A DNA stretch of 64,000 nucleotides, taken from NCBI GenBank assembly GCA_002306085.1, contig DBRS01000017.1, forward strand, positions 1,482 through 65,481, in the 5' to 3' direction. The stretch's first letter is position 1, and each line of letters begins with the position of its first letter. Under the pieces are notes generated by a model. The model worked only from the letters and a program-made list of their open reading frames with translations, ran no database searches and was not told where the DNA came from. Both the position numbers and the translations under genes were made by a program. Below, piece by piece: positions 3,278 through 56,154 of this stretch. The stretch is from Candidatus Moranbacteria bacterium UBA1362. Its GTDB lineage: Bacteria; Patescibacteriota; Minisyncoccia; Moranbacterales; GWC2-37-73.

Positions 3278-3294
3278 ATGAGTAAAATTAAATA

Positions 3295-3549: not shown

Positions 3550-3620
3550 ATATTAGCTTTTTAGGTTTTTAATTTTTAGCTTCTATATTTTGCAGTTGCT
3601 TCAAGCTCGCATTCTGATGC

Positions 3621-4772
3621 CTATTTGATTATTCCTCCCCCCAGCACCTCGCTGTCGTCAGAATAGAACACAGCGGACTGGCCGGGAGTCACCGCTCTCT
3701 GAGGCTCCAAAAATTCCACTTTCAGGATTGTTTTCGATTTTTGCCCTTTTTCCGCCTGTTTTTTTATTATAGCACGAACCGCCCGATTCTTATAGCGGAT
3801 TTTCACATTGGCTTCAAGAGGAAATTTCGGCTCGCCCGAGATCCAATTTTCGGCTTCAACAAGCATCGTTTTTCTGCAGAGGCCGGGATCGTTGGGGTTA
3901 TTGGTGACAATAAGCCGGTTGCTTTTAAAATCGCGCTCCACAACATAATAAGGCCCGTTTCCGCCTATATTTATGCCCTTCCTCTGCCCGATTGTGTATA
4001 GCTCAAGTCCCTCATGGGTTCCTATTTTCGCTCCTGCTCCGGACTTCAGGGTGCTTTGTGCGCCGGCACAAAGTGAACTGTTCGCAAAAACTATATCGCC
4101 GGGCGAAAGATTGACATTGCGCCTGATAAATCCATCCGGGCTCTCGCCTCTTATGAAACAAATATTCTGCGAATCATCCCTGTCAAAAACCGGAAGGCTC
4201 ATTTTTTTGGCGATCTTTCTCGTTTCGGGTTTCTTGAGTGACTCCAGCGGAAACAGAATTTTAGCCAGCTGTTTTTCAGTAAGATTATACAAGAAATATG
4301 TCTGATCTTTTTGCGCGTCACTTGGCATATACAAGCGATATTTTCCGTTCTTTTTTTCTATTCTGGCATAATGTCCGGTAGCAACAAAATCGGCTTTCAT
4401 CTCAAGCATTTTTTCAAAAAGCACGTGAAATTTCACTTTTTTGTTGCATGTCACACAGGGATTCGGGGTTCTGCCGGCCTTAATTTCATCGATAAAATAT
4501 TTCACAACGTGTTTTTTAAATTCTCTCGAGACATCCACCGCATGAAACTCGATGCCCAACGTTTTTGCCACATTTTTCGCATCTTTTTCGGATTCCGCGA
4601 AGTAGTCATCGCTTTCTCCGGACGTTTCTTTTGGCTCTTTCCAGAAACGCAAAAACACTCCAACGACATCGTATCCCTGTTTCTTGAGCAGCGCTGCCGC
4701 GGTGGAGGAATCAACTCCCGCTGACATGCCGACAATTACTTTTTTTCTTTTATTCTTTTTATTCCTTTGCAT
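3621..4772 (-). CDS. mnmA: tRNA-specific 2-thiouridylase MnmA
   Basis: PP-loop SGGVDSS motif (VGMSAGVDSS), conserved Cys, full-length MnmA architecture. Confidence 0.88.
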   Translation of the reverse strand: MQRNKKNKRKKVIVGMSAGVDSSTAAALLKKQGYDVVGVFLRFWKEPKETSGESDDYFAESEKDAKNVAKTLGIEFHAVDVSREFKKHVVKYFIDEIKAGRTPNPCVTCNKKVKFHVLFEKMLEMKADFVATGHYARIEKKNGKYRLYMPSDAQKDQTYFLYNLTEKQLAKILFPLESLKKPETRKIAKKMSLPVFDRDDSQNICFIRGESPDGFIRRNVNLSPGDIVFANSSLCAGAQSTLKSGAGAKIGTHEGLELYTIGQRKGINIGGNGPYYVVERDFKSNRLIVTNNPNDPGLCRKTMLVEAENWISGEPKFPLEANVKIRYKNRAVRAIIKKQAEKGQKSKTILKVEFLEPQRAVTPGQSAVFYSDDSEVLGGGIIK

Positions 4773-4894
4773 AAAAATCCTCAGAAAAATAAAAACTCGG
4801 GACTGATGTCAGTCGCCAAGCTTGGTGATAAAACGGATTAAAAATACCGCTTACAGTTCGAACAATCTCAAGGAATTATCTGACATTTCGCCTA

Positions 4895-6808
4895 TTATTC
4901 TTGTTTTTTATTATTTTTTGAATTATCTATCAGCTTCCGAACTTCGTCAAGATTTATTTGAGGTCTTTTTCTTTGCGATCTGAATTTTTTCGGAGCAATA
5001 TATTTCATCTGTGAAAGTTTTAGCGATTTTTCATCGGGCGCATAGAGTTTGTGCTCCACATGTTTTTCGAAGGGTTTTTGAGATGAAAAATCTTTTTGGA
5101 AATCTCCCTCTTTTTCCCGATTCTCTTTCGCGCGTTTACTAGTTTTTTCTCCGCGATCCGCGCTTTTCCCAGATCCCGCTTCTTCTCTTTCGTGCTGGGC
5201 GCGCTTCTCCTGGGCAAGTTTCTCTTTCGCCATCATGCGCTGGTAGTCTTTTAGGCACTCTCTGCAGAAAGTCGGCCTCTTTCCGTCCGGCTGGAAAGGA
5301 ACCTGAATATTATTGCCGCACATGTCGCATATTGCGTCGAACATCGGCCTTGAAATTGCAGGTTCAGCATCACTTTCCTTTGGAGCCTTCACAGAATCTT
5401 TTCCGGCAGTTTCTTTTTTTACCTCCGCCTCGGGTTTTGTCCCTTGTTGCGCCTGTTGTTTTTGCCGCGGCTCGCTGACTGTTTGTTCCTGCTGCAGCTT
5501 GTTGACCGTTTGGAATCCTCCCGAAGGCATGATTCCAGACCAGCGTGCAATCTTATCTTCCACTTCAGCTTTTGTCGACGCGTAGCGTTCGCGAGAGATC
5601 TGTATAACTTTCTGTTCATTTTCCAGCGTGTCTTCTATAAATATGGGGGGCAGAGTCACCGCCGAAAAAGCGTCTCCCGCGATTCCATCAATCATCAATT
5701 TAAGATAGATGTTGTATTTTGCGAGATTGACAATATCATTTTCCGTAAAGATAGGCGCGAATTCTTTTTCCAAAAATTCAGCGTCAACCGCGCCGACCCT
5801 GAATGAGATTATTGTTCCGGCATTGCCGAAAATCGCGTCGCGCACCTTTTCATCGATTTGAGATATATACTGATTAGCCAAAATCAAATTAAGTCTGTAT
5901 TTTCTGGCCTCCGAGAGAATATTGGCAAAAGATTCCGTCGCGAAGTTCTGAAACTCATCGACATAAAGGTAGAAATCATTGCGTTCTTCTTCGGGAATAT
6001 CAACACGCGCCATCGCGGCAAGCTGAATTTTTGTTATCATCATCGCGCCCAAAAGAGCGCTGTTATCTTCGCCAATTCTTCCTTTGGAAAGATTCAGGAT
6101 GAGAATTTTTTTGGAATCCATGACTTCCCTGATATCAAAAGACGACTGCGTCTGGCCGACAATGTTTCTAATAAGCGAACTTGATAAAAATTGCCCGACT
6201 TTGTTTTGAATAGGTGAAATAACTTCCTGCAGAACTCTGTCGTTCCATTTTGTGAATTCCTCGTTCCAAAACTGTTTCACAACGGGATCCGTGACTTTGT
6301 CCACGACTTTCTCGCGATATCTCTTGTCCACAAGAATTCTTGTCACGCCCAAAAGCGTGCTGCCCGGATATTCCAAAAGCGCCAAAATTGCATTGCGCAA
6401 AATATATTCCAAACGGGGACCCCACGAATCCGCCCATATTTTTTTGAACACACCGATAAGACCGGACGCAACTAGATGTCGGTATTCCGGATTGACAGCT
6501 TCCATGACATTGAAAGCTATCGGAAACTTTTGGTCCGCTGGATTGAGATATATAACATCCTTGATGCGCTCGGACGGAATCGCTTTTATGAGCTTCTCGG
6601 CGGTGTCTCCGTGAGGATCAATATAGCAAACTCCGTTCCCTCTTCGAATATCCTGCACGGCCATATTCTCAAGCAGATTTGTCTTTCCCATTCCGGTCTT
6701 TCCGATGATGTAAATGTGTCTGCGCCTGTCATCGGTTTTTATTCCGAAGACCCGTTCCTGGTTTCTGAAATTTGTTTTTGCAAAAAAAGTTATATCATTA
6801 TTCATCAC
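4895..6808 (-). CDS. VirD4/TraG/HerA-like P-loop ATPase (FtsK-HerA superfamily) with C-terminal C4 zinc ribbon and Lys-rich tail
   Basis: Walker A GKTGMGKT, Walker B YLYVDEFQNF, C-terminal CDMCGN...FCRECL. Confidence 0.6.
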   Translation of the reverse strand: MMNNDITFFAKTNFRNQERVFGIKTDDRRRHIYIIGKTGMGKTNLLENMAVQDIRRGNGVCYIDPHGDTAEKLIKAIPSERIKDVIYLNPADQKFPIAFNVMEAVNPEYRHLVASGLIGVFKKIWADSWGPRLEYILRNAILALLEYPGSTLLGVTRILVDKRYREKVVDKVTDPVVKQFWNEEFTKWNDRVLQEVISPIQNKVGQFLSSSLIRNIVGQTQSSFDIREVMDSKKILILNLSKGRIGEDNSALLGAMMITKIQLAAMARVDIPEEERNDFYLYVDEFQNFATESFANILSEARKYRLNLILANQYISQIDEKVRDAIFGNAGTIISFRVGAVDAEFLEKEFAPIFTENDIVNLAKYNIYLKLMIDGIAGDAFSAVTLPPIFIEDTLENEQKVIQISRERYASTKAEVEDKIARWSGIMPSGGFQTVNKLQQEQTVSEPRQKQQAQQGTKPEAEVKKETAGKDSVKAPKESDAEPAISRPMFDAICDMCGNNIQVPFQPDGKRPTFCRECLKDYQRMMAKEKLAQEKRAQHEREEAGSGKSADRGEKTSKRAKENREKEGDFQKDFSSQKPFEKHVEHKLYAPDEKSLKLSQMKYIAPKKFRSQRKRPQINLDEVRKLIDNSKNNKKQE

Positions 6809-6877
6809 TGGCTTCGTCGTTTAATTTTTTATGTTTTTCATAGATTCATGTGTGATTCGTGGTTTCGTATCGGTGAT

Positions 6878-8155
6878 TTATTCCACGGGCAAATTTGCCG
6901 GAGCTCCTCCGCGTTTTGCCTCAACGCGCGTAATCGAAGGAGCAACCACGCTCATATCAGGCAGATGAAATACCGTTGCAAGTTCTTCCGAGCTCAAAGT
7001 CATCTTAAATCCATCCATGCTTCTCGATCTGTATCTGCGCAAAATTTTCCTTTGTCTGTATCTCAAACGAGATTCCTTGAAAAAATAGGCGGAGACAGTT
7101 TTGGTATCACTCCCCGGCTTGAAACCGTTCAAATTTTCGTCATTAAACTGCTTTATTCCACCGAAGAAAGAAGTGACTCCGAGCGACCTGTCGAAATTTT
7201 CCCTGCGTCCCACATAAATGAAACGTCCCTTTGTGAAAAATTGCAATTTACCCAGATTATCTTCGATCGCTTTAAGAACCTCTCTTTCCCCTGGTGACAG
7301 TCTGAATTCGAGCGGCTGTTCCTCTTTCTTTGACTCTTCCTTAAATTCAACCGGCTTGGTAAGCGCGATTATCAAATTGGAAAATACATCCATAATATCT
7401 TTCCAAAGCCTTTTTAGAATTTCTTCCTTTTTCTCCTCCCTGCCTTTCAGTTTATCCAATATTTTCTTTCCTTCAGTCACTCCCCAACTCGGCTTGGCGG
7501 GATAAATGACCCATTGAAGCCACATTTTCTGGCCGGGACCTATTTTTCCCATTGTTTCGACGAGTCCGGCCAAAGGATCGATCATTTTTCCCGTGACTGA
7601 TTCTTCAAATTTCGGATAGGTTCTTATGGGATAAGCGTCATGTTTGGTAAATTCCAAATCTGCTCCCCACAAGTCCCATTGGCTGTTGGGAACTATTCTG
7701 GGTATATCATCCACGTAATCGGGAACCTCGACTATCCCCACATCCGGATACTGGGCGTAGATGTGCGACTCAACAAGACTGCGATGCTTTTTCAACGTTC
7801 TAATGTAAAAATGCACATTGCCTTCATCGCTTACTAGTTCCAGACTCATTATGTCTGTGAACGCTCCGTCGAGATTTATTTCAAGCTGATTGAATGTTTT
7901 TTCAACTCCGGCAAAACCAGCAAAAAGAGCCTCCATGGGTTTAGGGCTTTTTTCAATATTTTTTGGAGGAATGATTTCAAGCAACGTCCAGGTAAGGGAA
8001 GAAAAATATTTGTCCTGTATATGATACAGCCAAAGGATTTTGAAAAACAGATAAAAGATGGGCGGCAGAGCGATAAACCAAGTATGTTCCAATACCTGGC
8101 CCGATAACGCCAATGAATTTCCGATCTGGATAAATGCGCTTGAAATTATTTCCAT
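6878..8155 (-). CDS. Hypothetical membrane-anchored protein, likely operon partner of the VirD4/HerA-like ATPase
   Basis: N-terminal hydrophobic helix (WFIALPPIFYLFFKILWLY); 70-bp gap to downstream ATPase gene on same strand. Confidence 0.45.
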   Translation of the reverse strand: MEIISSAFIQIGNSLALSGQVLEHTWFIALPPIFYLFFKILWLYHIQDKYFSSLTWTLLEIIPPKNIEKSPKPMEALFAGFAGVEKTFNQLEINLDGAFTDIMSLELVSDEGNVHFYIRTLKKHRSLVESHIYAQYPDVGIVEVPDYVDDIPRIVPNSQWDLWGADLEFTKHDAYPIRTYPKFEESVTGKMIDPLAGLVETMGKIGPGQKMWLQWVIYPAKPSWGVTEGKKILDKLKGREEKKEEILKRLWKDIMDVFSNLIIALTKPVEFKEESKKEEQPLEFRLSPGEREVLKAIEDNLGKLQFFTKGRFIYVGRRENFDRSLGVTSFFGGIKQFNDENLNGFKPGSDTKTVSAYFFKESRLRYRQRKILRRYRSRSMDGFKMTLSSEELATVFHLPDMSVVAPSITRVEAKRGGAPANLPVE

Positions 8156-8233
8156 ATTTTTGTCTCGTTAAACCCGCCCGGATGCAATTTTGCCCTTCAA
8201 ACAAGACATGATTTTTATTTTTTCGCAATACGG

Positions 8234-9328
8234 CTATTTTTTGATTGAATATGTGCCGCTTTTCGATTTAGTAAAGTAGTTGTTAAGATTGATCACTATG
8301 GTTGATTTCTTCACTTGTCTTACCTTCAGGACTTTTCCTATAATCTCATCTCTTTTGAGTGGTTTTTTTGCCGCCTTGATGATTTCCTCGATAACGTCTT
8401 TTACCGTACCTTTTTTGTACCCCCACTCTGCCAAAGCATATATGCCTCTTCCCACCAGCACAAAATTGTCATCTTTAATAAGCTCATTATGCACGGTCTG
8501 GGGATGCGTTTTCTTTTTGTTAAGGCTGTGCCTGTCGATTTCTTCCGCGATTTCCCGGAAATGCAACGGTTTCTTTGTTTCCTTGAGGATAAGATAGGCC
8601 TTTTCCCTTGTTCCTTTGGGAGAAACTTCTTTCCACTTTGCAATTCCCCATTTTCCAAAAGAATTTCTGGCCAATTCTTCCGATACATCCAGATAATGCG
8701 AAAGATTTTCTTTGCCGAAACCGGAGAAGGAATAATTTTCAACAATGGACTTGAATAATTCATCAAGAAGCAAAGTGCTTTTCTTTTTTTCAAGCATCTC
8801 AACAGCGGCATCCTTTATTGATTTCCATTTTTTGACATTGAATTCCGCGGTTGAATATGACGCCTTAAGCACGCCGGGAATTTCCTGATAATTTATCCCG
8901 TCCACGCATTCCAGAAAAAAACTTATGGCAGCTTCTTCGCTTTTATCACTTTTTCCCAACTCAGAAGCGAGTTTTTTCTTCTCTATTATACCACTGTTTG
9001 ACTGTATAGCCAATGTGATTTTTGTTTTAGCCTGAACAAGATATGGATTATCTTTTTTTTCACAGATTTTTCTCACGACTTCATGTACGATCTGCCTCAC
9101 TCGTTCCCGGGTAATGTTATATTTGTTTCCGATTTCTTCCAATGTCAAAGCGTTGCCGCCGTGAACCCCATAGCGGATAAAAATGATTTCCTGGGAACGT
9201 TTTGACAAACCGGAAATAATCTCTTTTAGCGCATCAGAAAAAAAGAAGTTTTCGGATATATTTTTTTGTGGCTGATTTGAGCTGGATTCCATATTTTTAA
9301 ACACAAAAATAAATATTAGACACTTCAT
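8234..9328 (-). CDS. Sigma-70 region-4 HTH fused to two HARE-HTH (RNAP delta-like) winged-helix repeats; putative transcription regulator
   Basis: region 4.2-like LTLEEIGNKYNITRERVRQIVHEVVRKI; C-terminal repeats ...FREIAEEI...VHNELIKDDNFVLVGRGIYALAEWGY. Confidence 0.55.
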   Translation of the reverse strand: MKCLIFIFVFKNMESSSNQPQKNISENFFFSDALKEIISGLSKRSQEIIFIRYGVHGGNALTLEEIGNKYNITRERVRQIVHEVVRKICEKKDNPYLVQAKTKITLAIQSNSGIIEKKKLASELGKSDKSEEAAISFFLECVDGINYQEIPGVLKASYSTAEFNVKKWKSIKDAAVEMLEKKKSTLLLDELFKSIVENYSFSGFGKENLSHYLDVSEELARNSFGKWGIAKWKEVSPKGTREKAYLILKETKKPLHFREIAEEIDRHSLNKKKTHPQTVHNELIKDDNFVLVGRGIYALAEWGYKKGTVKDVIEEIIKAAKKPLKRDEIIGKVLKVRQVKKSTIVINLNNYFTKSKSGTYSIKK

Positions 9329-9481
9329 ATTATATTACCATATATTAAATTTTTGTCAACCCCAAAACAGCTTTTTGAAACTTTTGATTTTTCTCCTGTT
9401 TTTAAGCTCTCGAAAGCCCAAAAATCGACCGCAACTCGCATACAGAAAGCACACATAATAAATGCACACCGGAAAGCAAAA

Positions 9482-9506
9482 AATTACGTAATTAATTACG
9501 TAATTT
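9482..9506. promoter_or_regulatory. Tandem palindromic TTACGTAA operator-like sites (2 copies, 12-bp spacing) upstream of the sigma4/HARE-HTH gene
   Basis: AATTACGTAATTAATTACGTAATTT; same motif recurs at 29469-29502, 46741-46788, 47960-47993. Confidence 0.5.
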
Positions 9507-9555
9507 TAAAGCAAGCGTTGAATTTTGATACTTATTTAGGTAAGGAATATATTCC

Positions 9556-12063
9556 TTACCGCCTCACCTTTACTTTAAGGCCCTCTTCCAGAGCTCTTGT
9601 AATCGCGCTTACCACATCATCTATTTCCTCGCTGGTCAAGGTCCTGTCATCGGCGCCCAAAATTATATGAAAAGCAAAGCTTGAAGTGCCGTCATCAAAA
9701 TCAATGGCATCAAACAAATCTACATCGAGCACGATGTTCCCGCCGGCCGCCTGAATGGTCTGCAATATTTCATCAACTTTTATTGTGCCGTCCGTAACCA
9801 TTGAGACATCCCTGGTGACGCTCGGAAACCTGTTAATCGGACTGTATTCCCTTTCTTGCTGCACGAAACTGAAAAGTTTTTGCATGTCAAATTCAAACAT
9901 AGCGACTCGAGTATGAATATTAAACTGCGCAAGAACAAACGGATTTATTTCTCCCATAAAACCTACGGCGTCTTCATGCCCTTCAATTTTCACTTCGGCG
10001 CTCCTGCTTTCATGCCATAATGATCTCGGCGTGTCGACAGGACTGCTGTTGAAGTTATCATAGTAATAATCCGTTATGCCGATCCGCGAAAGAAGGTTGT
10101 CTACCGAGGATTTTGCGATGAAGAAATTTGATTCATGCCTCTTTTCCCGCTTTTCTCCTTTTTTGCCCTTATTTTCGAGAATAATCGCGCCAACAAGCAT
10201 TTCCTTCTCTTCCGGTAAAATTTCCTTCAGTCTGCCTGCAGCGGAAGATTTTGTGGTTTTTCCCGAAATTTCTTGCGCAACTTGTTCGATGGCCAAGTTT
10301 TGGGCAGGCCAATATACCCTTCCTATTTCAAAAATTTCAAATTCCCTGAAATATTTGAGGTTTTCTCTGGTATTTTTGAGAATATTGGGAACGAGACTTA
10401 CTCTCATGAGAGCCTGATCGGGATTGGCCGGATTTTCCAGTTCAAGATGCTTGAGCGAACCGAGCTGAGCAAGATTGGCGTCGCGCTGTGAATAAAAAGA
10501 ATAGTTATACATTTCGGAAAATCCCTGCGAAACAAGTACGTCTTTCACGAGCCTTGCAAAAATCCTCTTTTCGTTTATCTTCGCCGGCTGAAGTGAAACG
10601 AGCGGCGCCCGCGATTTGATTTTTTCGTATCCGTAAATTCTTCCTATTTCTTCAATCAAATCCTCCTCGGTCCTGAGATCAAGCCTGAACGTGGGAATGC
10701 CGACGCTGATATTTTTTCCGGAACCCGCCACTTTTAGATCAAGAGATCTCAGGATTTTCTTGACCGTGCCGGCCGGAACAGTTTCCCCAAGAAGCTTGTT
10801 TGCATAATCAAGTCTCAGTTTAATTTTCCAAGGATTGACTTTTTTGGGATACACGTCTTTGACGCCTTCCAGCTCGGCGCCTGCAGTGTGCTCAAGAATT
10901 TCAATAATCCTTGCCATGGCTTTCTCGGCGATGTTCGAATCAATATCTTTTTCATAGCGCAAGGCCGCATCGCTTATTATTCCCAAACGCATCCTTGTGC
11001 GCCTTATGGAGCTGGCATTGAAATTCGCCGATTCTATTACGATCCTTTTTGTATTTTTCGAAACTCCGCTTCCAAGTCCGCCCATTACTCCGGCAAGAGC
11101 AATGGGTTCTTTTTCGTTAGCGATGACAATATCATTTTCACCAAGTTCTTTAACGCTTTCATCAAGAAGCTTAAGCTTTTCTCCTTTTGCAGCCTTTCGT
11201 ACTATAATATTGGCTTTTTGGCCGTCTGAAATTTTATCAAAATCAAAAGCATGCATAGGCTGCCCAAGTTCAAGCATCACATAGTTGGTCGCGTCAACAA
11301 TGTTGTTTATCGGCCTGATTCCTGACATTTTCAACCGATTTTGGATCCATTGAGGCGAATCTTCCACTGTTATCCCTTTCATCACGGCCCCGACGTAGCG
11401 AGGACAAAGATTTTTATCTTTCACTTCAATTAAAAGCGCTTCCGTTTTCTTTTTTGCAACGCCGAGTCCGTCATAATCATATTCAACTTTTTTTCCTTCG
11501 AGAGCCGCTATTTCGCGCGCCATGCCGACATGCGAGAGCGCGTCATGACCGCGATTTGCCAAAACATCAATTTCTATTGAAACGTCGTCAAGTCCAAAAA
11601 TTTTCGCGATGGGTTGCCCTAACTTGGCGTTCTTTTTTAAAATCATTATTCCGCTGTGATCGGTTCCCAGACCCAGCTCATCTTCCGCGCAAAGCATTCC
11701 GAACGATTTTACTCCCCTAATTTCGGCCTCTTTGATTTCAAAACCTTTCGATCCGCCCAAGGGCGAAGCGGGAAGTTTGGCTCCAACCAACGCGACGGGA
11801 ACCCTCTGTCCCACCTCGATATTCGGCGCTCCGCAAACGATCTGAAGCACTTCCTTGCCAATATTAACTTTTGCGATCCTGAGCTTGTCGGCATTCGGAT
11901 GTTTTGATATTTCCATGATTTCCCCCACGACCACGTCTTTTAAATTTTCCAACTTTTCAATCCCTTCGATTTCAAAAGAATGCAACATCAAATTGTCAGC
12001 CAGTTTTTCAACCGACATTTTCGTCCCTGATAATTCTTTGAGCCAATTGTAACTGTATTTCAT
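9556..12063 (-). CDS. pheT: Phenylalanyl-tRNA synthetase beta subunit
   Basis: 835 aa; tRNA-binding N-terminal domain, B3/B4, B5 and FDX-ACB regions; follows pheS. Confidence 0.88.
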   Translation of the reverse strand: MKYSYNWLKELSGTKMSVEKLADNLMLHSFEIEGIEKLENLKDVVVGEIMEISKHPNADKLRIAKVNIGKEVLQIVCGAPNIEVGQRVPVALVGAKLPASPLGGSKGFEIKEAEIRGVKSFGMLCAEDELGLGTDHSGIMILKKNAKLGQPIAKIFGLDDVSIEIDVLANRGHDALSHVGMAREIAALEGKKVEYDYDGLGVAKKKTEALLIEVKDKNLCPRYVGAVMKGITVEDSPQWIQNRLKMSGIRPINNIVDATNYVMLELGQPMHAFDFDKISDGQKANIIVRKAAKGEKLKLLDESVKELGENDIVIANEKEPIALAGVMGGLGSGVSKNTKRIVIESANFNASSIRRTRMRLGIISDAALRYEKDIDSNIAEKAMARIIEILEHTAGAELEGVKDVYPKKVNPWKIKLRLDYANKLLGETVPAGTVKKILRSLDLKVAGSGKNISVGIPTFRLDLRTEEDLIEEIGRIYGYEKIKSRAPLVSLQPAKINEKRIFARLVKDVLVSQGFSEMYNYSFYSQRDANLAQLGSLKHLELENPANPDQALMRVSLVPNILKNTRENLKYFREFEIFEIGRVYWPAQNLAIEQVAQEISGKTTKSSAAGRLKEILPEEKEMLVGAIILENKGKKGEKREKRHESNFFIAKSSVDNLLSRIGITDYYYDNFNSSPVDTPRSLWHESRSAEVKIEGHEDAVGFMGEINPFVLAQFNIHTRVAMFEFDMQKLFSFVQQEREYSPINRFPSVTRDVSMVTDGTIKVDEILQTIQAAGGNIVLDVDLFDAIDFDDGTSSFAFHIILGADDRTLTSEEIDDVVSAITRALEEGLKVKVRR

Positions 12064-12159
12064 TTCACTTATAACTTCACCAGCTCCGCTAGCTTCACCA
12101 GAATTTAGAAATTTGAATTTCCCAAAAACCGAAGAAGCTAAAAGCTAACAAAGTCAATC

Positions 12160-13194
12160 TTAGAACTGTTTTATAAATCTTATATCACCGCTATGAAAAA
12201 ATCTGATATCGGTAATTTTGTTGCGCATCATAAGAAGTCTTTCCAGTCCGAATCCCCACGCAAATCCCTGATATTTTCCTCTCGGATAGCCGGATGAGAC
12301 AAAAACATTCTGATTTACCATGCCCGCGCCTCCGACCTCAAGCCATCCTCCGCCTTTGCATGTTTGGCAGCCTTTTCCTCCGCAAACGGTGCAGCTTATG
12401 TCAAATTCAAAACTAGGTTCGGTGAACGGAAAAAAGCTTGGCCGCAGTCTCACTGTTATTTTTTTCTTGAAAAATCTGGAAAAAAATTGCTCGGCAATGA
12501 ATTTGAAGTTTGCCACACTCACATCTTCGCCAACCATAAGAGCTTCGAACTGATAAAAAGTGTGTTCGTGTTTGGCATCGGTAGCTTCATTGCGGAAGCA
12601 TTTTCCGGGAGATATTATCCGAAGCGGAGGTTCGTGATTTTCCATATGTCTTATCTGTACCGGGGAAGTATGCGGACGCAACAAAATTTTGTCTTTTTGT
12701 TCTCCGTCGCTTTTGATCCAAAACGTATCCCACTTGTCGCGCGCCGGATGATCGGGAGGCATATTGAGCGCATCAAAACTGTAAAAATCGGTTTCCACTT
12801 CCGGACCGTCTGCAATTTCAAATCCCAGCGAAATGAATATATCTTCCAATTCGTTCTGAATTTGCGTAAGCGGATGAAGATGCCCTCGTTTCATTTTAAC
12901 GGCAGGAATCGTAATATCGATTTTTTCAGCCGCAAAATCAAAACTTTTCTGTTTGATTTCCTGGCCTTTTTGCGCTAAAGCTTCCTCTATTTCCCTTTTG
13001 GCGGAGTTTGCAAGTTGTCCAACGGATTTTCTTTCGTCCGGCGAAAGATCCTTAAGCCCTTTCAGAATGGATGTGAATTCACTCTTCCTGCCCAAAAATT
13101 TCACCCTGATGGCGTTTATTTCATCCTCATTGGCGGCGCTTTGTATCTGCAAAATCGCCTCATTTCTGATTTTGTTTATTTTTTCGCTAAGCAT
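12160..13194 (-). CDS. pheS: Phenylalanyl-tRNA synthetase alpha subunit
   Basis: class II motifs (FRNEATD..., GFAWGFGLERL); 344 aa. Confidence 0.9.
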   Translation of the reverse strand: MLSEKINKIRNEAILQIQSAANEDEINAIRVKFLGRKSEFTSILKGLKDLSPDERKSVGQLANSAKREIEEALAQKGQEIKQKSFDFAAEKIDITIPAVKMKRGHLHPLTQIQNELEDIFISLGFEIADGPEVETDFYSFDALNMPPDHPARDKWDTFWIKSDGEQKDKILLRPHTSPVQIRHMENHEPPLRIISPGKCFRNEATDAKHEHTFYQFEALMVGEDVSVANFKFIAEQFFSRFFKKKITVRLRPSFFPFTEPSFEFDISCTVCGGKGCQTCKGGGWLEVGGAGMVNQNVFVSSGYPRGKYQGFAWGFGLERLLMMRNKITDIRFFHSGDIRFIKQF

Positions 13195-26675: not shown

Positions 26676-27776
26676 TTATATTCTCGAATGCCTGGACAAG
26701 TTAAGCAAAATTCCTACAGCCGACATCAAAAACACCAGCGACGTTCCTCCATAACTTATAAAAGGCATGGGAACTCCGGTTAACGGCACCAGTGCAACGT
26801 TGGCGCTTATGTTTATGAATGCCTGAAACACGATCCACATGGTTATGCCTATAGCCAGAAGCCGTCCGAAAAAATCAGGCGCGTTTTTTGCGATCTTTAT
26901 ACCCCTCAGGGCAAGCATAAAGAACAGGATAATTAACACCGACGCTCCTAATATTCCCAACTCTTCGCCTATTATCGCAAAAATGGAATCCCCCACCGGT
27001 TCGGGAAGATAGTTAAATTTCTGCCTGCTATGACCGAGCCCTACTCCCAAAATCCCTCCCGATCCTATCGCAAGCAAAGCCTGATTTATCTGATAGCCCG
27101 TTCCTTGAGGATCAGCCTGCGGATTTAAAAACGTCATTATCCGGTTTAACCGATAAGGCTCCAGTTTAATCAGCACCCAAAGAATAAGCAAACCCATCAG
27201 ACCCAACAAGCCTATATGCCTGAAATTCGCTCCTGCCACAAAAAAAATAGCCAGCGAAGTCAACACTATTATGCCAAAGGTTCCCGTATCAGGTTGATTC
27301 ATAATAAGAACTCCTATCAATCCCAATATTCCGACAAACGGGAGCAGTCCTTCATAGACATCCTTTATTCTATTTATTCCTCGGCTCTCCAGCCATGCAG
27401 CCAGATATAAAACCATGGACAATTTGGCCATTTCTGAAGGCTGAAATGAGAAAGGACCGAGCTGTATCCAACGGCTTGCGCCGTACACCTTCGATCCAAT
27501 TCCTGGCACAAAAACCAAAAGCAGGAAAATTATCGACAAAAAAAAGAAAGGCACTGATATTTTTTTCCAAAAAGAATAATTTATTTTCGAAAAAAAATAT
27601 AGCGCGGCCAAGCCTGGAATGACCCCGTAAATCAGCTGATGCTTGAAAAAATAATATTTGTCTTCAAAGCGCGTCTCGCTATAGATCACTCCCGCACTCG
27701 CTATCATGACCAAGCCGAAAACAAGAAGGATCAAGACGATACTCAGCAATATTTTGTCAGCATTTCTTGAATGCAT
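26676..27776 (-). CDS. ftsW: SEDS-family peptidoglycan glycosyltransferase FtsW/RodA
   Basis: 10-TM SEDS protein adjacent to murG. Confidence 0.8.
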   Translation of the reverse strand: MHSRNADKILLSIVLILLVFGLVMIASAGVIYSETRFEDKYYFFKHQLIYGVIPGLAALYFFSKINYSFWKKISVPFFFLSIIFLLLVFVPGIGSKVYGASRWIQLGPFSFQPSEMAKLSMVLYLAAWLESRGINRIKDVYEGLLPFVGILGLIGVLIMNQPDTGTFGIIVLTSLAIFFVAGANFRHIGLLGLMGLLILWVLIKLEPYRLNRIMTFLNPQADPQGTGYQINQALLAIGSGGILGVGLGHSRQKFNYLPEPVGDSIFAIIGEELGILGASVLIILFFMLALRGIKIAKNAPDFFGRLLAIGITMWIVFQAFINISANVALVPLTGVPMPFISYGGTSLVFLMSAVGILLNLSRHSRI

Positions 27777-27862: not shown

Positions 27863-29464
27863 TTAGCTCACGTTCAATCCCGTTGGATTCGCCGGCGCGG
27901 CCATGTCAAGATCGGCATAATAACCCATATTGGGACAAATACTCGGATCCTGCAGATGAAAATTGCTTTGAGCGGCATCAACAAATATCGATTGCGGATC
28001 GCTTCTAATTATTATCAGCGAATCGGGATCGAAGCCGAAAATGTTCCGAGCTTGAGTATAGGTATAATGTTCCACTCCTGACGGCATATAACGGGAAGCA
28101 AATTGAAAATCCGAATGAGGAGAAATGAAGCAGTTGTTGTTTGATGTCACCTGCTGCAACAAAGATTCCGCCACGTTTTCGGCGTCGGTATAAACTTCGC
28201 TTTTTGAAATATACGCGGGAGTGTCCCAATTGGCCCCCTGAACCCTCGAATTCAAACCACAGAAAATATTGTTGCGGATCGTATGTCCGGTGCCAGTCCA
28301 CAAAGACATCAAAAGATCAAGCCCGACGAAAGTATTATACTCAACAGTGGCGTTTTGTCCGGCAATAGCAACCAACCTGGGATCATTCATGATACCGTCA
28401 CTGTTGTTTCCCATTGCCCTAAACCCCCTGTCAACATTGTAGCTGAGATTGCGCACAAAATGCATATTTGAAGCTACAATAGTGCCAAGGCTTCCGCAAT
28501 CATGAATAATATTGTTTTCTATAAGAACAGGTCCGGCGGTGCAATTCTTAAAAAAGAACGCTTGAGGAACTTCATATATTTCATTATTCTTTATTTCTAT
28601 ATATCCCGTTCCTCCGCCTTCAAATCCCAAATACGATTGCCTTGAAAGCATCGTTACTGCTCCAAAATGCTGCGCATCAATAACGCCGTCCCATTGGTTC
28701 GGTTGCTCCCAATCATATATTCCATGTAACTTGTTGCCGTGTATGAAAATATTATACGGGCCTCCCCAGTCTCCTCTGTCGATCCGGACAATTCCCGGAT
28801 TATCTCCGCCGTCACAGGCAATGTCATGAATATTGTTATTTTTTATAGTTATATCATGTGTTTGAGCACTTTGTGTTCCTCCTTCAACATTCACAATGCC
28901 ACCCATTATTTCAAATCCCTCGATAACCCAATATGCCTTGAGGCCCACCGTGACAGCTCTCTTGAAAACTTCGCCATTGGGAGGAAATCCGGGATCAAAC
29001 CTTTGATCCGTTAAATCCAAAATTGGGGTCTCACCCGGATAGTTTCTGACAGTAATCGGATTGTTTTCCGCACCGCTGGCTATGGAATACGCGGGATGAT
29101 TCGACGCCCAGCCGCTAAAGTCTTTTATGCTTATAAATCCATAAGCGTCCTTGAAGCAATATCCATCTGTTAGTTTCTGCCCTTCCGGACAACTGGTTGC
29201 GCCAGCGCTGCTGGCGTCTCTTGCAATGCCTCTCACCATCGCATTGTCAAAATCATACGTGCCGCCACGCGCATATATCGTGTCCCCCGCTTGCGCCCTT
29301 GTGAGCGCCGGTAAAAATGTCTTGAATGGTTCCACTATGGTTCCGGATGCGACATCGTTTCCGTCAGGTGCGACATAATATTCCGCCGCTTCGGAATTTT
29401 TCGTAAAGCAAAAAAAACTGAGAAAAAGCACTGATAAAATTAATTTTCGAGCATGTCTTTTCAT
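27863..29464 (-). CDS. Secreted right-handed parallel beta-helix protein 1 (pectate-lyase-like fold); start moved to second in-frame ATG (track start 29494)
   Basis: signal peptide MKRHARKLILSVLFLSFFCF...SEA; PbH1-type repeats (NNNIHD, NNIIHD); TTACGTAA repeats between the two ATGs. Confidence 0.7.
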   Translation of the reverse strand: MKRHARKLILSVLFLSFFCFTKNSEAAEYYVAPDGNDVASGTIVEPFKTFLPALTRAQAGDTIYARGGTYDFDNAMVRGIARDASSAGATSCPEGQKLTDGYCFKDAYGFISIKDFSGWASNHPAYSIASGAENNPITVRNYPGETPILDLTDQRFDPGFPPNGEVFKRAVTVGLKAYWVIEGFEIMGGIVNVEGGTQSAQTHDITIKNNNIHDIACDGGDNPGIVRIDRGDWGGPYNIFIHGNKLHGIYDWEQPNQWDGVIDAQHFGAVTMLSRQSYLGFEGGGTGYIEIKNNEIYEVPQAFFFKNCTAGPVLIENNIIHDCGSLGTIVASNMHFVRNLSYNVDRGFRAMGNNSDGIMNDPRLVAIAGQNATVEYNTFVGLDLLMSLWTGTGHTIRNNIFCGLNSRVQGANWDTPAYISKSEVYTDAENVAESLLQQVTSNNNCFISPHSDFQFASRYMPSGVEHYTYTQARNIFGFDPDSLIIIRSDPQSIFVDAAQSNFHLQDPSICPNMGYYADLDMAAPANPTGLNVS

Positions 29465-29468
29465 ATTT

Positions 29469-29502
29469 TTTACGTAAGGTTTTACGTAAAACATTACGTA
29501 CT
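29469..29502. promoter_or_regulatory. Three tandem TTACGTA(A/C) sites (12-bp spacing) at or overlapping the translation start of beta-helix protein 1
   Basis: TTTTTACGTAAGGTTTTACGTAAAACATTACGTACTT; 24-mer nearly identical to 47970-47993. Confidence 0.55.
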
Positions 29503-29569
29503 TATACCATTTTTATCGAAATCAGATTTTTCAGATGAGGAGTTTAATTCCCAAAACCTTTTTGTATTT

Positions 29570-31309
29570 TCAGCTCACGCTTAATCCCTGCGGTGAAGCC
29601 GGAGCGATCTCATCTCCCGAAGTCGTTGCGCCTTCGATCCAATCAGGGTCTCCCAAAGCGTTTTGCAAAATTGAAACATCAGCAAGATTCAGGACTCCTT
29701 CAACCCAATCGTTATCATCTGGGTTTGTCGCTCCGATGTAAGAAGGGATCGTAACGTCATCAAGATACGGATGTCCGCTTCCGATTCCGCCGTTTGAAAT
29801 GGTGGCCGAACCCGACACCGCATGCTCTTCACGAGTGATATAGCGGCTTGATCCGGAAGTGCCGCTCATCAAATTGTCGATTCCCTCAGAGCTTGCTTTG
29901 CGATAATTGCCGGAAATTTGAGGATAATTTGTCTCCCAATTGGAAATGAGCCCTATATCCCTGTGTCCGGGCGCGACCAAGTCCGCATTCCAAACGTCAT
30001 TGTTATTGTCAGGACGATAAAGATAGTTGTTTTTAAAATGGAAATCGTTCAGATTAAGAACCGTCGAATCGTCATAATAAGAAGCGCAACCGGAATCACC
30101 GGTGTTACACATATAGTCCCTAAAGCCCACCTGCCTGTTCCGATCACTGTCTACAAAGTTATCGATAATATTGTTATAGGTCCAGTCTTTGCGAAATGCC
30201 ACATCTCCCGCAGGATCCCAAAAATAATACTTGTTGCTTGTCGTGACGTATGAAAGAGAATAGTGAAGCCTCTTTACGTAATTATTATATATGCATGAAT
30301 AGAGCGGAGCGTAATCTCCGGTATACCCCACGCTTATATGGCTGTCCGGAATTATATTGTTGTAAATTTGCGCCAGATCCTGATTGGTCTCTATCATTTC
30401 CGACCCCAAAACAAGATTATGATGGATCTTGTCGCCGAAATGCTTGCGTGATTCCGTGATTGTTCCATTCACGGCGTGCGGGATTATTGTCTGACCAGCC
30501 TTGTGTTTGAAAGCTCTCGTCGACCTGTCGGTTGTTTCTTTGAAAAGGTTGTATCTGACAATATTCCTTGCAATCAAAGAATTTTCATTATAAGCCCCGT
30601 CAGCCAAAACATTTGTTTTCGAAATGAGCTCATATGAAACCGCATAGTCGCTCAAAAAAACTATCTGCGCGCAATTTGTTCCCGCGGTATCGGACGCTCC
30701 ATTGGAATCAAAAAAGTTATATTCAATCACCGAATCCATCGGGACATTGGCATAGATTCCGGCAGGATTATCTCCGCCAGTACCGGCATAATTGTCGTGT
30801 ATGTAACAATACCTCACAGTAAATGGACCGCCGGAAAGAGCGATTCCGGCGTTAGTCCCTCCGGATATCTCCAGACGCTCAAATCTCCAATATTTGACAC
30901 ATCCCGGTCCGGGACATTGGTTTTGATATGCTCTTAGTCCGATGACGCACCAGTCTCCGGAGCCCTGAATACGCGCCCATTCGCCGGGATAGGATTGTAT
31001 GGAGCTATAATCATCGGCGGTCCCGTCAGCTTTTATTTCAAACGTCTCGCGCCCGTCTCCCGAACTCGCATAAGTTCCGCCGCGAAGGTATATGTCATCC
31101 CCTCCTGCCATCGCGTCAAGGGCGGCCTGCACGTTCACGTATGCATCGCCGTCGCTTCCGCCGCAATTTCTGGCAGCGGTTGAATAGTTGCCCGACGTGC
31201 AATTTGCCGCAAGCGTCTGGTCGACATAAATATTCGCCGCTTCGGATTTTCCGGCAAACGCAAAAACACTCAGCAACGCGAAAAAAAATAATATCTTTTT
31301 TTGGTTCAT
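29570..31309 (-). CDS. Secreted right-handed parallel beta-helix protein 2 (paralogue of 27863-29464)
   Basis: signal peptide MNQKKILFFFALLSVFAFAGKSEA; beta-helix repeats; shared N- and C-terminal motifs with paralogue. Confidence 0.7.
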   Translation of the reverse strand: MNQKKILFFFALLSVFAFAGKSEAANIYVDQTLAANCTSGNYSTAARNCGGSDGDAYVNVQAALDAMAGGDDIYLRGGTYASSGDGRETFEIKADGTADDYSSIQSYPGEWARIQGSGDWCVIGLRAYQNQCPGPGCVKYWRFERLEISGGTNAGIALSGGPFTVRYCYIHDNYAGTGGDNPAGIYANVPMDSVIEYNFFDSNGASDTAGTNCAQIVFLSDYAVSYELISKTNVLADGAYNENSLIARNIVRYNLFKETTDRSTRAFKHKAGQTIIPHAVNGTITESRKHFGDKIHHNLVLGSEMIETNQDLAQIYNNIIPDSHISVGYTGDYAPLYSCIYNNYVKRLHYSLSYVTTSNKYYFWDPAGDVAFRKDWTYNNIIDNFVDSDRNRQVGFRDYMCNTGDSGCASYYDDSTVLNLNDFHFKNNYLYRPDNNNDVWNADLVAPGHRDIGLISNWETNYPQISGNYRKASSEGIDNLMSGTSGSSRYITREEHAVSGSATISNGGIGSGHPYLDDVTIPSYIGATNPDDNDWVEGVLNLADVSILQNALGDPDWIEGATTSGDEIAPASPQGLSVS

Positions 31310-31315
31310 TTTTAT

Positions 31316-31969
31316 TTAAATACTTTTGGATTTTTTCTTCCTCCATTTTTCAATTTCACCGTGATTCCCGGAAAGAAGAATTTCGGGCACTTTCCAGCCA
31401 TTAAAAATTTCCGGCTTTGTGTATTGAGGATATTCAAGATAACCTTCCTTGCTGTGAGACTCGATAAGAGGACTTTGTTCGTTGCCCAAAACGCCCGGAA
31501 TCAATCTTGCAATGGAATCAACAACAACCATTGCCGGAATTTCTCCTCCTGTCAAAACAAAATCTCCGATTGAAATTTCCTCGCCGGCAACATGCTGGGC
31601 AACTCTTTCATCCACTCCTTCATAACGTCCGCAAATCAAGATTAGTCGGTCATATTTGGAAAGCCTTTTCACATCTTTTTGTGTGAATCGCTTTCCCTTT
31701 GCCGAAAATAATATTGTTCTTGTTTTTTGGCTTTCGCCCTGCGATTTTATGGACTCTACAACTTTAGATATCGGCTCAACCTTCATCACCATTCCGGCGC
31801 CACCGCCATAAGGAGTGTCATCGACTGTTTTGTGCTTATCCGTGGCATAATCGCGCAAATTATGGACATTGATTTTCACCGCCCCAGCCTTTCGGGCGCG
31901 CTTGATGATGGACTCATTGAAGTATGAATCGAAAATTTTCGGAAAAATTGTTATTATGTCAAAATTCAT
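31316..31969 (-). CDS. trmD: tRNA (guanine37-N1)-methyltransferase
   Basis: SPOUT knot motifs ([14 protein letters not shown]). Confidence 0.9.
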
Positions 31970-46740: not shown

Positions 46741-46788
46741 TATTACGTATTTTATTACGTAAAATTTTACATATTTAAATATGTAAAA
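46741..46788. promoter_or_regulatory. Array of four TTACGTA-type half-sites, ending in a perfect 24-bp palindrome
   Basis: TATTACGTATTTTATTACGTAAAA + TTTTACATATTTAAATATGTAAAA (46765-46788, perfect palindrome). Confidence 0.5.
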
Positions 46789-47764: not shown

Positions 47765-47947
47765 TTATTTTCTAGAATAAAAATCTCTGATTATAATACC
47801 GCCTTTTATTTTTTTGACCACGACTTTCTGTTTTTCTTTCCAGCCGAAAGCGCGGATAATTTCGATTGGCAATGTCAGGCCGATGGAATGATTGCCCAAT
47901 TTTGTAAGTTTTCTTACATTGGATTCTTCCCTTTTTCTTGTTGACAT
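47765..47947 (-). CDS. AbrB/MazE/SpoVT-family small DNA-binding protein (60 aa)
   Basis: swapped-hairpin pattern KLTKLGNHSIGLTLPIEIIRAFGW. Confidence 0.5.
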   Translation of the reverse strand: MSTRKREESNVRKLTKLGNHSIGLTLPIEIIRAFGWKEKQKVVVKKIKGGIIIRDFYSRK

Positions 47948-47959
47948 ATGTTTGTTCTA

Positions 47960-47993
47960 AGTATGTAAAATATTACGTAAAATATTACGTACT
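47960..47993. promoter_or_regulatory. Tandem TTACGTA(A/C) sites 14-45 nt upstream of the AbrB-like gene start
   Basis: TATGTAAAATATTACGTAAAATATTACGTACTT. Confidence 0.55.
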
Positions 47994-48113: not shown

Positions 48114-48120
48114 AGAACTG

Positions 48121-48195
48121 TACCGCGTATGGGATTCGAACCCATGATTTCTTGGATGAGAACCAAGTGTCCTAGACCAACTAGACGAACGCGGC
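48121..48195 (-). tRNA. tRNA-Glu (anticodon CUC)
   Basis: cloverleaf: acceptor GCCGCGU/ACGCGGU, 3-bp D stem, anticodon stem CUUGG/CCAAG, loop UUCUCAU, T-arm AUGGG-UUCGAAU-CCCAU, discriminator A. Confidence 0.75.
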
Positions 48196-55341: not shown

Positions 55342-56154
55342 CTATTTCACTGTCAGACTGCTTGGCATTGCGGGGGGCGACAAGTCGACGTCAGGAATCC
55401 CGTTCCATATCTCATAGTCGTCGAATTGCCACCAACCCTCTCCCGGAAGGCATTCTACCGTAGCTTTGATGCTTGGAATATCCAAGGGTCTTGTGAAATC
55501 TCCCGTGATGATCGCATTGTCGTTGAAAGCATATGCGCCATCAAATTTCGCCCACGCAATGCCGTCCATGTTCTGGAATGTGGCGCCTGAGGATTTTTTC
55601 ATATATATCTCGACATGCAGCCAGTCGCCAATCACATAAGGGACACTCGCATATTTTGTCACTGTGGAATTGCCGTCCCAACTCATGCCCTGCTCCATCT
55701 GCCACTCCAGTCCCATGGTTTTGCTCGACGAATCATAAGATTGCCAGATGAGCTCAGTGTGAGGACCGGATCCGGTCGGAGCAGACATGATCTTCACATT
55801 CCAAATACCGCTATAATTTCCCCAGTAACCGCTTTCGTATTTTGCCCAATAAGAAACATATATCTCGCCCGAAGGAGGAAATCCGGCAGGCAACCTGAAG
55901 ATCAAGTCGCCTCCTCCGTCCTCATCGTTATGAGAAGTCCTTACGGATCTACCCGTGTGGCCCGAAGGATACGTGGGAACGCCCTCGCCATATAACCAAA
56001 GGGTGTTGACATATCCTAACATATCAACCAGACTGCTTTCATCAAATGTGACTCGGGAAAGCCTGTCCGCAGCTTTCCCTTCTGACGCAAAACTAAAAAT
56101 TCCGAAGGATAGAACGAAGAAGATCAATATATTTTTTTTCACAAGCCTTTTCAT
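55342..56154 (-). CDS. Secreted hypothetical protein (270 aa) ending in the same C-terminal tail as the beta-helix proteins
   Basis: signal peptide MKRLVKKNILIFFVLSFGIFSFASEGKA; C-terminus ...SPPAMPSSLTVK. Confidence 0.6.
   Translation of the reverse strand: MKRLVKKNILIFFVLSFGIFSFASEGKAADRLSRVTFDESSLVDMLGYVNTLWLYGEGVPTYPSGHTGRSVRTSHNDEDGGGDLIFRLPAGFPPSGEIYVSYWAKYESGYWGNYSGIWNVKIMSAPTGSGPHTELIWQSYDSSSKTMGLEWQMEQGMSWDGNSTVTKYASVPYVIGDWLHVEIYMKKSSGATFQNMDGIAWAKFDGAYAFNDNAIITGDFTRPLDIPSIKATVECLPGEGWWQFDDYEIWNGIPDVDLSPPAMPSSLTVK

Follow-up and report, generated by a model that had tools for sequence, protein, structure and literature searches.

We analyzed a stretch of 64,000 nucleotides from Candidatus Moranbacteria bacterium UBA1362 (assembly GCA_002306085.1, contig DBRS01000017.1, positions 1,482 to 65,481 of the forward strand), which is referred to as the window. 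Two genes, here termed A and B, are inserted between the housekeeping genes trmD and ftsW of the window. Both gene products carry a signal peptide and end in the same 14-residue motif, D-x-x-[AP]-P-x-x-P-x-G-L-x-V-x-COOH, at the extreme C-terminus. This tail, which also ends the product of a third gene of the window (gene C), appears to be undescribed and to be the most interesting feature of the locus. The reading that we consider probable, although with clear reservations, is that A and B are glycan-active exoproteins tagged by the tail, that the tail docks them at the cell surface, and that the pair is cargo at the trmD-ftsW junction. Each gene product consists of three parts: a Sec signal peptide, a DUF1565/Pel9A-like beta-helix passenger, and the 14-residue C-terminal tail. 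The passengers would cleave or bind host or environmental polysaccharide, and the tail would keep a repertoire of exoproteins at the cell surface by docking or sorting.

Gene B is located at 29570-31309 and codes for a 579-aa exported right-handed beta-helix protein of a family that we term B, while gene A, located at 27863-29464, codes for an exported right-handed beta-helix protein of 533 aa belonging to family A. Both genes, as well as those flanking them, are on the minus strand. The insertion is flanked upstream by trmD (31316-31969; Pfam tRNA_m1G_MT was found on the identical gene in the ENA contig L003) and downstream by ftsW (26676-27776; 80 orthologous loci), which is followed by murG, murC, and murB. 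The original prediction of two adjacent genes with signal peptides was confirmed, with one correction to the length of A. The open reading frame (ORF) of A found mechanically (27863-29494, minus strand, 543 aa) is 10 codons longer than the likely gene. The start of gene A is probably the ATG at 29464 (MKRHARKLIL...), which gives 533 aa, because this start matches that of the orthologue on the Logan contig L001 (MKHKIALIF...) and because an array of TACGTAA units fills the first 30 nt of the longer ORF. The signal peptides are classical Sec signals, ending in ...KSEA and ...NSEA before an Ala. That of B has 24 aa (31238-31309, minus strand; MNQKKILFFFALLSVFAFAGKSEA, followed by ANIY) and that of A has 26 aa (29387-29464, minus strand; MKRHARKLILSVLFLSFFCFTKNSEA, followed by AEYY), and both were modeled by AlphaFold2 as an N-terminal helix (residues 3-22 in B and 3-19 in A). 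The order trmD-B-A recurs in the independently assembled contig L003, and an identical copy of A was found on a JGI contig (P0001).

Together with the stop codon, the tail is encoded at 29570-29614 in B (DEIAPASPQGLSVS-stop) and at 27863-27907 in A (DMAAPANPTGLNVS-stop), on the minus strand in both cases. Gene C (55342-56154, minus strand) codes for a 270-aa secreted protein without known domain that ends in DLSPPAMPSSLTVK. A, B, and C were the only soluble signal-peptide proteins of unknown function noted in the window, and all three bear the tail. At NCBI, gene C is named hypothetical protein of Candidatus Moranbacteria (locus tag GYA69_06270; 100% identical, 99% of the query covered). A homology search with gene C returned only itself and one relative, which is 49% identical and ends in DTTAPNAPSGLSVS.

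On contig L001 the tail ends six of the six signal-peptide proteins encoded in the gap between trmD and ftsW (LPAMPTGLSVS, LPVSPSGLSVS, APTSPSGLSVS, PPSNPTELVVS, LPSMPSGLSVL, and LPAIPSGLNIS). One of these is an A-type beta-helix, four have TIG-like segments, and one is a He_PIG protein with a possible beta-helix (by eye). A further related locus, L004, encodes a 502-aa tail-bearing beta-helix protein (4057-5565), which matches the NCBIfam model choice-of-anchor Q (NF041518) just above the cut-off. The related loci contain 1153 ORFs with a length of 150 aa or more, of which 9 have the strict motif at their end, compared to 0.105 expected from its internal frequency. In all 10 proteins from the window, L001, and L004, the stop codon follows exactly one residue after the V/I position, as it does in most of the metagenome cases. 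In family B the motif is located at most four residues from the C-terminus in 30 of 119 homologues and is never internal, and in family A it is located at most four residues from the C-terminus in 6 of 74 homologues.

We scanned metagenome DNA for the back-translated sequence A-P-x-x-P-[ST]-G-L-[ST]-V-[ST]-stop. The scan matched 22 loci, seven of which were discarded as high-GC chance matches. The other 15 loci were low in GC (0.37-0.41), and in 13 of them the match was the in-frame end of a tail ORF, with a signal peptide wherever the 5' end was complete. From the remaining two loci, both short, no tail ORF was recovered. Tandem arrays of two to five tail genes were present in seven low-GC metagenome loci resembling the candidate phyla radiation (CPR).

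The consensus of 53 non-redundant tails was [SG]-D-[TV]-[TVI]-[AP]-P-[AS]-[SA]-P-[ST]-G-L-S-V-[SQ]-COOH. The Pro residues at positions -10 and -7 were found in 53/53 tails, Leu at -4 in 52/53, Gly at -5 and Val at -2 in 47/53 each, and Asp at -14 in 45/53. All 48 tail proteins with a complete N-terminus have a signal peptide (45 by heuristic, 3 by eye). Their passengers include beta-helices, a BNR_4 propeller, He_PIG, fn3, and TIG segments, and many have no Pfam match. The synonymous codons chosen for Ser, Leu, Val, and Pro vary among the tail copies, and conservation ends at the stop codon, which indicates that selection acts on the peptide. The near-identical 3' ends that had been reported for A and B at the DNA level exist, but for about 18 nt only, and the likeness is a by-product of the conserved peptide. 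Altogether, the tail is position-specific, conserved at the peptide level and carried by unrelated signal-peptide proteins, which is what characterizes a conserved C-terminal tag.

In the AlphaFold2 monomers the tail is disordered and devoid of secondary structure. The predicted local distance difference test score (pLDDT) of A is 55 and then 40 over the last two blocks, while that of B is about 51-53 over the last two 10-residue blocks, with residues 564-569 below 50. Neither a transmembrane segment nor a basic cluster was found after the tail motif. A description of the motif was not found in the literature searched, no tail-bearing protein had an NCBIfam match to the tail, and nothing relevant was found in the literature on sorting signals in Patescibacteria or on beta-helix proteins of Moranbacteria.

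The ENA copy of B (P0121; L003 10001-11740) differs from that of the window by one residue. This residue is in the tail (APASLQGLSVS compared to APASPQGLSVS in the window) and affects a Pro that is invariant in 53/53 other tails; the change could reflect natural variation or an error in sequencing. On locus L098 (5041-7023) the secreted proteins encoded directly after two tail genes end in ...NDFT(L/I)LA(D/T)DYG(Q/I)SF, which has a dockerin-like look. Different C-terminal modules may coexist in this array.

The AlphaFold2 models, based on family alignments, were confident for both passengers, with a pLDDT of 93.0 for A and 86.9 for B and a predicted template modeling score (pTM) of 0.91 for each. 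They confirmed, at the level of prediction, that A and B are right-handed parallel beta-helices of the pectate-lyase-like superfold. The top Foldseek matches were all beta-helix proteins. Among the structures in the PDB, A was found to fit best to a rhamnogalacturonan lyase of polysaccharide lyase (PL) family 9 (5olq, E 7e-10), and further matches were a xylosidase of glycoside hydrolase (GH) family 120 (3vst), PL6 alginate lyases, GH136 lacto-N-biosidases, and Pel9A (1ru4). For B the best match was Pel9A (1ru4, E 2.7e-6), with chondroitinase B and alginate lyases of family PL6 coming next. Along both family alignments there are recurrent invariant Asn residues, consistent with an Asn ladder, and the repeats NNNIHD and NNIIHD were found in A.

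At the sequence level the matches to known families were few. The Pfam matches of A to DUF1565, Beta_helix, and the Pel9A-like family are weak, being sub-threshold or restricted to the N-terminal cap. A scored 21.4 bits against DUF1565 (PF07602; cut-off 20.3; residues 45-83 of the 543-aa ORF) and 16.0 bits against PF22842, Pel9A-like_beta_helix (cut-off 25.2; residues 38-83). B matched neither of these two models and had no Pfam, NCBIfam, or PDB sequence match at all. Precomputed PF22842 matches are carried by many homologues of A and B. The cap motif YYVAxxGxDxNxGTxxxPFxTxxxAxxxAxxGDxIxxxxGTY (YYVAxDGxD...GD.IY.RGGTY) is common to beta-helix proteins of different activities. The original prediction had proposed glycan-degrading or host-surface-active exoenzymes and had pointed to PL1, PL9, or GH28. 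The first part is plausible for secreted beta-helix proteins, but membership of PL9, PL6, PL1, or GH28 was not established, since the likeness to solved enzymes does not reach beyond the cap.

A Lys residue is invariant in both families and was aligned between them by hhalign, namely K306 of A (QAFFFKN, 71/71) and K270 of B (116/116). A GGDNP motif is also common to both families. In addition, R230 and H266 are nearly invariant in family A, and E144, E147, R166, H171, D172, E196, H296, H297, and D311 are nearly invariant in family B. The invariant Lys common to both families favors an enzyme, and K306/K270 is a candidate catalytic residue judging from the alignments. The catalytic Lys and Arg of PL6 enzymes are located in S-x-K-S ... 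R-H-G motifs; a weak HMMER alignment of A to the PL6 structure 7dmk (domain E 3.2, register unreliable) sets a Gly and a Trp of A opposite to these residues. The passengers are new members of a known superfold and make up large, uncharacterized families that are candidates for glycan activity and in which one residue is an obvious target for mutation.

A and B were previously described as tandem paralogues that had been duplicated and then diversified. We found them to be 25% identical by BLASTP, with 31% gaps, over the N-terminal 235 residues only (E 1e-5). Alignment of the two families by hhalign gave a probability of 99.35% (E 6e-21) with about 20% identity over 339 columns. Family A has 275 homologues, with the best non-self match being 79% identical to A and the next 60% or lower, while family B has 147 homologues with a best non-self match of 45%. 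There were no cross-family members among the best 120 matches of each family. A and B failed as recent tandem paralogues, given the short span of identity, the separate families, and a homology seen only at the profile level, and their sequences instead identify them as old sister families. A stretch of 55 nt that runs from the end of the signal peptide into the first residues of the mature protein (29371-29425 compared to 31222-31276) is 73% identical between A and B (...K/N-SEA followed by A-x-x-YV). Signal-peptide ends like those of A and B are present on other tail proteins as well, and both termini look modular. The closest non-CPR relatives of A (P0003-P0019, e.g., P0012) are 51-60% identical and mostly have lipoprotein-type N-termini and Gly/Asp-rich linkers. 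The sole named sequence among them is from Polyangiaceae, and their sequences suggest a transfer between Myxococcota-like bacteria and CPR.

To compare the insertion site with that of related genomes, 80 loci from GTDB species representatives were collected by FtsW protein search (identity at most 76%). The loci are mostly labeled Moranbacteria/Moraniibacteriota or Parcubacteria/Patescibacteria; many others have labels that are generic or evidently wrong. Both trmD and ftsW were found in 76 loci other than the window, i.e., 75 GTDB loci and the Logan contig L001. The two genes abut, which we define as a gap of at most 272 bp or overlapping ORFs, in 73 of these 76 loci, 72 of which are Moranbacteria-like GTDB loci. 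The gap is 3.5 kb in the window and is otherwise occupied only in L001 (10.1 kb), L004 (1.1 kb, with one ORF without tail), and L006 (1.7 kb). Apart from one weak A-family match in L004, homologues of A, B, and C were not found in the GTDB FtsW loci. The claim that the genes interrupt a housekeeping cell-wall cluster thereby held, and the pair is far from being universally present at the locus. Since trmD and ftsW abut in nearly all other loci, the A-B pair is lineage-specific cargo in an otherwise contiguous junction. Several loci with Moranbacteria-type FtsW and synteny, among them L005, L020, and L023, bear the title 'uncultured Bdellovibrionales', and one that of 'Bathyarchaeia archaeon'; the bins in question have probably been mislabeled.

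Contig L001 is 76.5% identical to the window in FtsW, 82.5% in TrmD, and 79% in A. Its gap (3049-13086) contains six signal-peptide genes in a row, each of which ends in the tail, and only the first of them is an orthologue of A. As L001 carries A directly after trmD, no B, and five other genes after A, it seems that A has been located at the junction since the common ancestor of the window organism and L001, and that the rest of the array has turned over. The trmD-ftsW site behaves as a hot spot where arrays of tail genes expand and turn over.

The GC content of the insertion is slightly higher than that of the flanks, and we found no mobile-element genes, flanking repeats, or target-site duplications around it. 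No terminator was predicted between A and ftsW, and the inserted genes are therefore probably located within the trmD-ftsW transcription unit. Gene B starts 6 nt after the stop codon of trmD, which leaves no room for a promoter of its own. The spacer before gene A is 75 nt and holds three TACGTAA units with a period of 12 bp (29470-29500), a candidate operator that ends 6 nt upstream of the ATG of A. This agrees with the original prediction, which had credited only the distal copy with a promoter of its own, insofar as only this copy has a motif-bearing upstream region. The sequence TTACGTAA occurs seven times in the window compared to 0.47 expected, and the two-unit TACGTAA pattern has 14 strand-wise matches at four intergenic sites compared to 0.07 expected; the arrays at these sites have two or three units and keep strictly to the 12-bp period. 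The other three arrays are located upstream of minus-strand genes, namely at 9484-9503 upstream of the gene for a HARE-HTH/sigma-70 region 4 protein, at 46743-46773 upstream of that for a polyprenyl synthase, and at 47961-47991 directly upstream of 47765-47947, which codes for a 60-aa MazE/AbrB-type DNA-binding protein (PF04014, E 2e-5, 24.9 bits compared to a cut-off of 24.7). The position of the latter array suggests that this small protein binds the motif and is autoregulated, and from the sequence the four sites look like a small regulon with an autoregulated repressor. Gene B would be co-transcribed with trmD, while A would additionally be controlled via the TACGTAA operator, probably by the MazE/AbrB-type protein.

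The tail resembles the linker and first strand that open bacterial Fn3/Ig-like modules, and the Pfam fn3 consensus starts with PsaPtnLtvt. A tail-like motif (DTTAPT..., DTTPPVISS...) opens a complete extra domain in longer homologues, and in one array protein the fn3 match begins at the tail-type motif. That the tail has no structure in either AlphaFold monomer speaks against a fold-back onto its own passenger. In other lineages, homologues of A and B have different attachment devices at the position of the tail, i.e., FG-GAP/VCBS repeats, dockerin-like modules (archaeal homologues), a transmembrane-type C-terminus, or the C-terminal domain of the type IX secretion system. Some have devices elsewhere in the protein, i.e., an N-terminal prepilin leader or PG_binding_1. 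These alternative anchors make up a 'choice-of-anchor' pattern. Some Patescibacteria-like homologues of A (P0027 and P0063) combine the beta-helix with a prepilin-type N-terminal methylation domain and Ig/Fn3-like domains and lack the tail. Judging from this domain composition, the passenger may in other lineages be presented on type IV pili.

From the likeness to an Fn3 first strand, the lack of structure in isolation, and the choice-of-anchor pattern of the homologues, we infer that the tail is a tag for docking or sorting that serves to retain proteins at the surface, and by analogy it would most plausibly act by beta-strand addition to a surface partner. In its most specific form, the tail would be an orphan Fn3-type first strand that acts in trans: by beta-strand complementation of an incomplete Ig/Fn3 domain in a scaffold or filament of the surface, it would dock a whole set of exoenzymes and adhesins there. 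Moranbacteria and their ultra-small relatives without the usual anchors would in this way have a minimal display system, similar in function to cohesin-dockerin or donor-strand exchange. We put this version forward tentatively and regard it as rather doubtful. CPR bacteria are reported to assemble Pam pili through donor-strand exchange, and an Fn3-type membrane anchor is predicted to donate a terminal strand in these pili (bioRxiv 10.64898/2026.03.03.709456). Pam homologues are reported mainly from Saccharimonadia and Microgenomatia, not from Moranbacteria (bioRxiv 10.64898/2026.03.03.709456). The Pam pili are a precedent for a mechanism of strand complementation and not evidence for it here.

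Several observations weigh against A and B being glycan-active exoproteins that are docked by the tail. The template modeling scores (TM-scores) to the fold neighbors were only about 0.3-0.5, and the fold matches also included the adhesin PfbA (4mr0, E 8.5e-6) and phage tailspikes. In a profile search against the PDB, sequence likeness to solved enzymes was confined to the N-terminal cap, and a catalytic constellation could not be mapped onto any known lyase or hydrolase. Variant tails were found in proteins that look non-CPR (e.g., P0020, P0024, and P0030), and the tail may thus not be confined to this lineage. Neither the window nor the surroundings of other tail genes revealed an acceptor, chaperone, or processing enzyme for the tail, and there was no recurrent partner gene in the neighborhoods of the tail-bearing family B genes P0171, P0236, and P0166, two of which came with DNA. 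The case for docking is made by conservation, position, modularity, and analogy only, and that for the MazE/AbrB-type protein as binder only by the array upstream of its gene.

Some of these points would fit with the passengers being non-enzymatic beta-helix adhesins or structural surface proteins, similar to PfbA or pertactin, that attach an episymbiont to its host. The match to PfbA and the failure to map a known catalytic motif are in agreement with this, as is the fusion of homologues to a prepilin N-terminus and to Ig-like, FG-GAP/VCBS, and PG-binding domains, which are typical of surface display. The top structural neighbors, however, are all lyases or glycosidases, and a Lys that is invariant across two such diverged families, together with the near-invariant acidic, His, and Arg residues of family B, is more typical of an active site. 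We consider adhesins unlikely, although they deserve serious attention. The tail could also be functionless, i.e., the leftover linker and first strand of deleted Fn3/Ig modules or a recombination scar of domain shuffling. Its resemblance to the start of such modules in longer homologues, the fn3 match that begins there in one array protein, and its disorder in the AlphaFold2 models are what such a remnant would show. A remnant would hardly be expected to place the stop codon one residue after V/I in 10/10 proteins from the window, L001, and L004, as well as in most cases from metagenomes, to keep seven positions 85-100% conserved despite synonymous codon turnover, to be never internal in family B, and to persist in gene C and its 49% identical homologue. 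A tail without function is thus improbable.

Three other explanations concern the origin and the location of the pair. A recent tandem duplication, later diversified with divergent regulation, would account for A and B being adjacent, co-directional, and similar in size, for the 18 nt or so shared at their 3' ends, for the 55 nt that are 73% identical at the end of the signal peptide, and for the homology seen at the profile level. It is very improbable in view of the 25% identity restricted to 235 aa, the separate families of more than 100 members each, whose closest non-self matches (79% for A, 45% for B) and best 120 members do not cross over, and the presence of A without B at the site in L001. 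The shared ends are signal-peptide and tail modules common in this lineage and are present on unrelated proteins too. We give just as little credit to the pair being a remnant of a prophage or mobile element with tailspike-type depolymerases. Fold matches to beta-helices and tailspikes of uncultured phages equaled in strength those with cellular enzymes (E 7.5e-11), and the genes are indeed an insertion, but phage, integrase, or transposase genes and flanking repeats were not found nearby, Sec signal peptides are present instead of virion-attachment N-termini, GC content differs little from the flanks, and A has diverged in step with the neighboring housekeeping genes. Finally, A and B could remodel the envelope polysaccharide of the cell itself during division and for that reason reside in the trmD-ftsW-murG-murC-murB cluster. 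Lying among genes for cell wall and division, probably in one transcript with them and with no terminator predicted before ftsW, they would be well placed for this, and some homologues have PG_binding_1. Because the position is empty in 73 of the 76 related loci with both genes and because family B genes are found among unrelated housekeeping genes in other CPR contigs, the location looks incidental, and a role in envelope remodeling is quite improbable.

The surroundings of gene C and of the MazE/AbrB-type gene had some further features. Gene C starts 3 nt after the stop codon of a gene for an 826-aa ClpB-like AAA+ protein (56157-58637, minus strand), which has four predicted N-terminal transmembrane segments, unusual for a Clp ATPase. 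A gene for a GT4 glycosyltransferase follows downstream. A single tRNA-Glu gene (CTC; 48120-48195, minus strand) was found just upstream of the TACGTAA array and the MazE/AbrB-type gene.

CPR/Patescibacteria live attached to other cells. To our knowledge, little is known about their surface equipment beyond type IV pili and the recently described Pam pili. The genomes of Moranbacteria-like organisms hold arrays of genes for exported proteins, most of them unannotated, with a short, strictly C-terminal tail in common. Should this tail serve as a signal for docking or sorting, the surface-displayed proteome of these organisms would be defined by a simple sequence rule, and phylogenetic profiling would make it possible to find the acceptor or processing factor. 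It might also yield a compact peptide tag for displaying proteins on surfaces.

Compared to known systems, the passengers are most similar to PL9 (Pel9A, 1ru4; 5olq) and the PF22842/DUF1565 proteins, with which they share the right-handed parallel beta-helix and the N-terminal cap motif and which gave the best Foldseek matches of both A and B. They differ from these in that the TM-scores are only 0.34-0.50, that the profile likeness of A and B stops after the cap, and that PF22842 is below the gathering threshold for A and absent for B; neither the catalytic Lys nor the Ca site of PL9 could be mapped onto them. The superfold and the cap are also shared with PL6 alginate lyases, chondroitinase B, GH120 XylC, and GH136 lacto-N-biosidase (Foldseek E 1e-8 to 1e-4), while a family-level sequence match to PL6, GH120, or GH136 is lacking. 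Proteins with a choice-of-anchor domain (e.g., Q, NF041518) similarly have a passenger domain with alternative surface anchors across lineages. A and B do not match this model, and their anchor would be a 14-residue tail without a transmembrane segment. A literature search on choice-of-anchor domains listed nothing on CPR, judged by titles and abstracts.

With LPXTG, PEP-CTERM, PGF-CTERM, and GlyGly-CTERM, the tail has in common that a short conserved C-terminal motif is present on many unrelated secreted proteins of one genome. It is unlike these tripartite signals in its motif, P-[ST]-G-L-x-V-x, which has no residue between the P and the T/S, unlike LPXTG. A sortase- or exosortase-type signal was rejected, as the protein ends four residues after the conserved Gly and has no transmembrane segment and no basic cluster. 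The tail was also rejected as a dockerin, being 14 residues compared to about 60-70 residues for a dockerin, and Pfam finds none; dockerin-like ends occur in archaeal homologues and not in A or B. Likewise, A and B do not qualify as donor-strand pilus subunits, as they are beta-helices without a truncated Ig-like acceptor and have no chaperone-like neighbors. Although a scaffold, chaperone, or acceptor gene like those of cohesin-dockerin and donor-strand systems (chaperone-usher, type V pili, and Pam) was not found here, the likeness to these systems is that a repertoire of exoproteins carries one C-terminal docking element, and that the tail is strand-like and unstructured alone.

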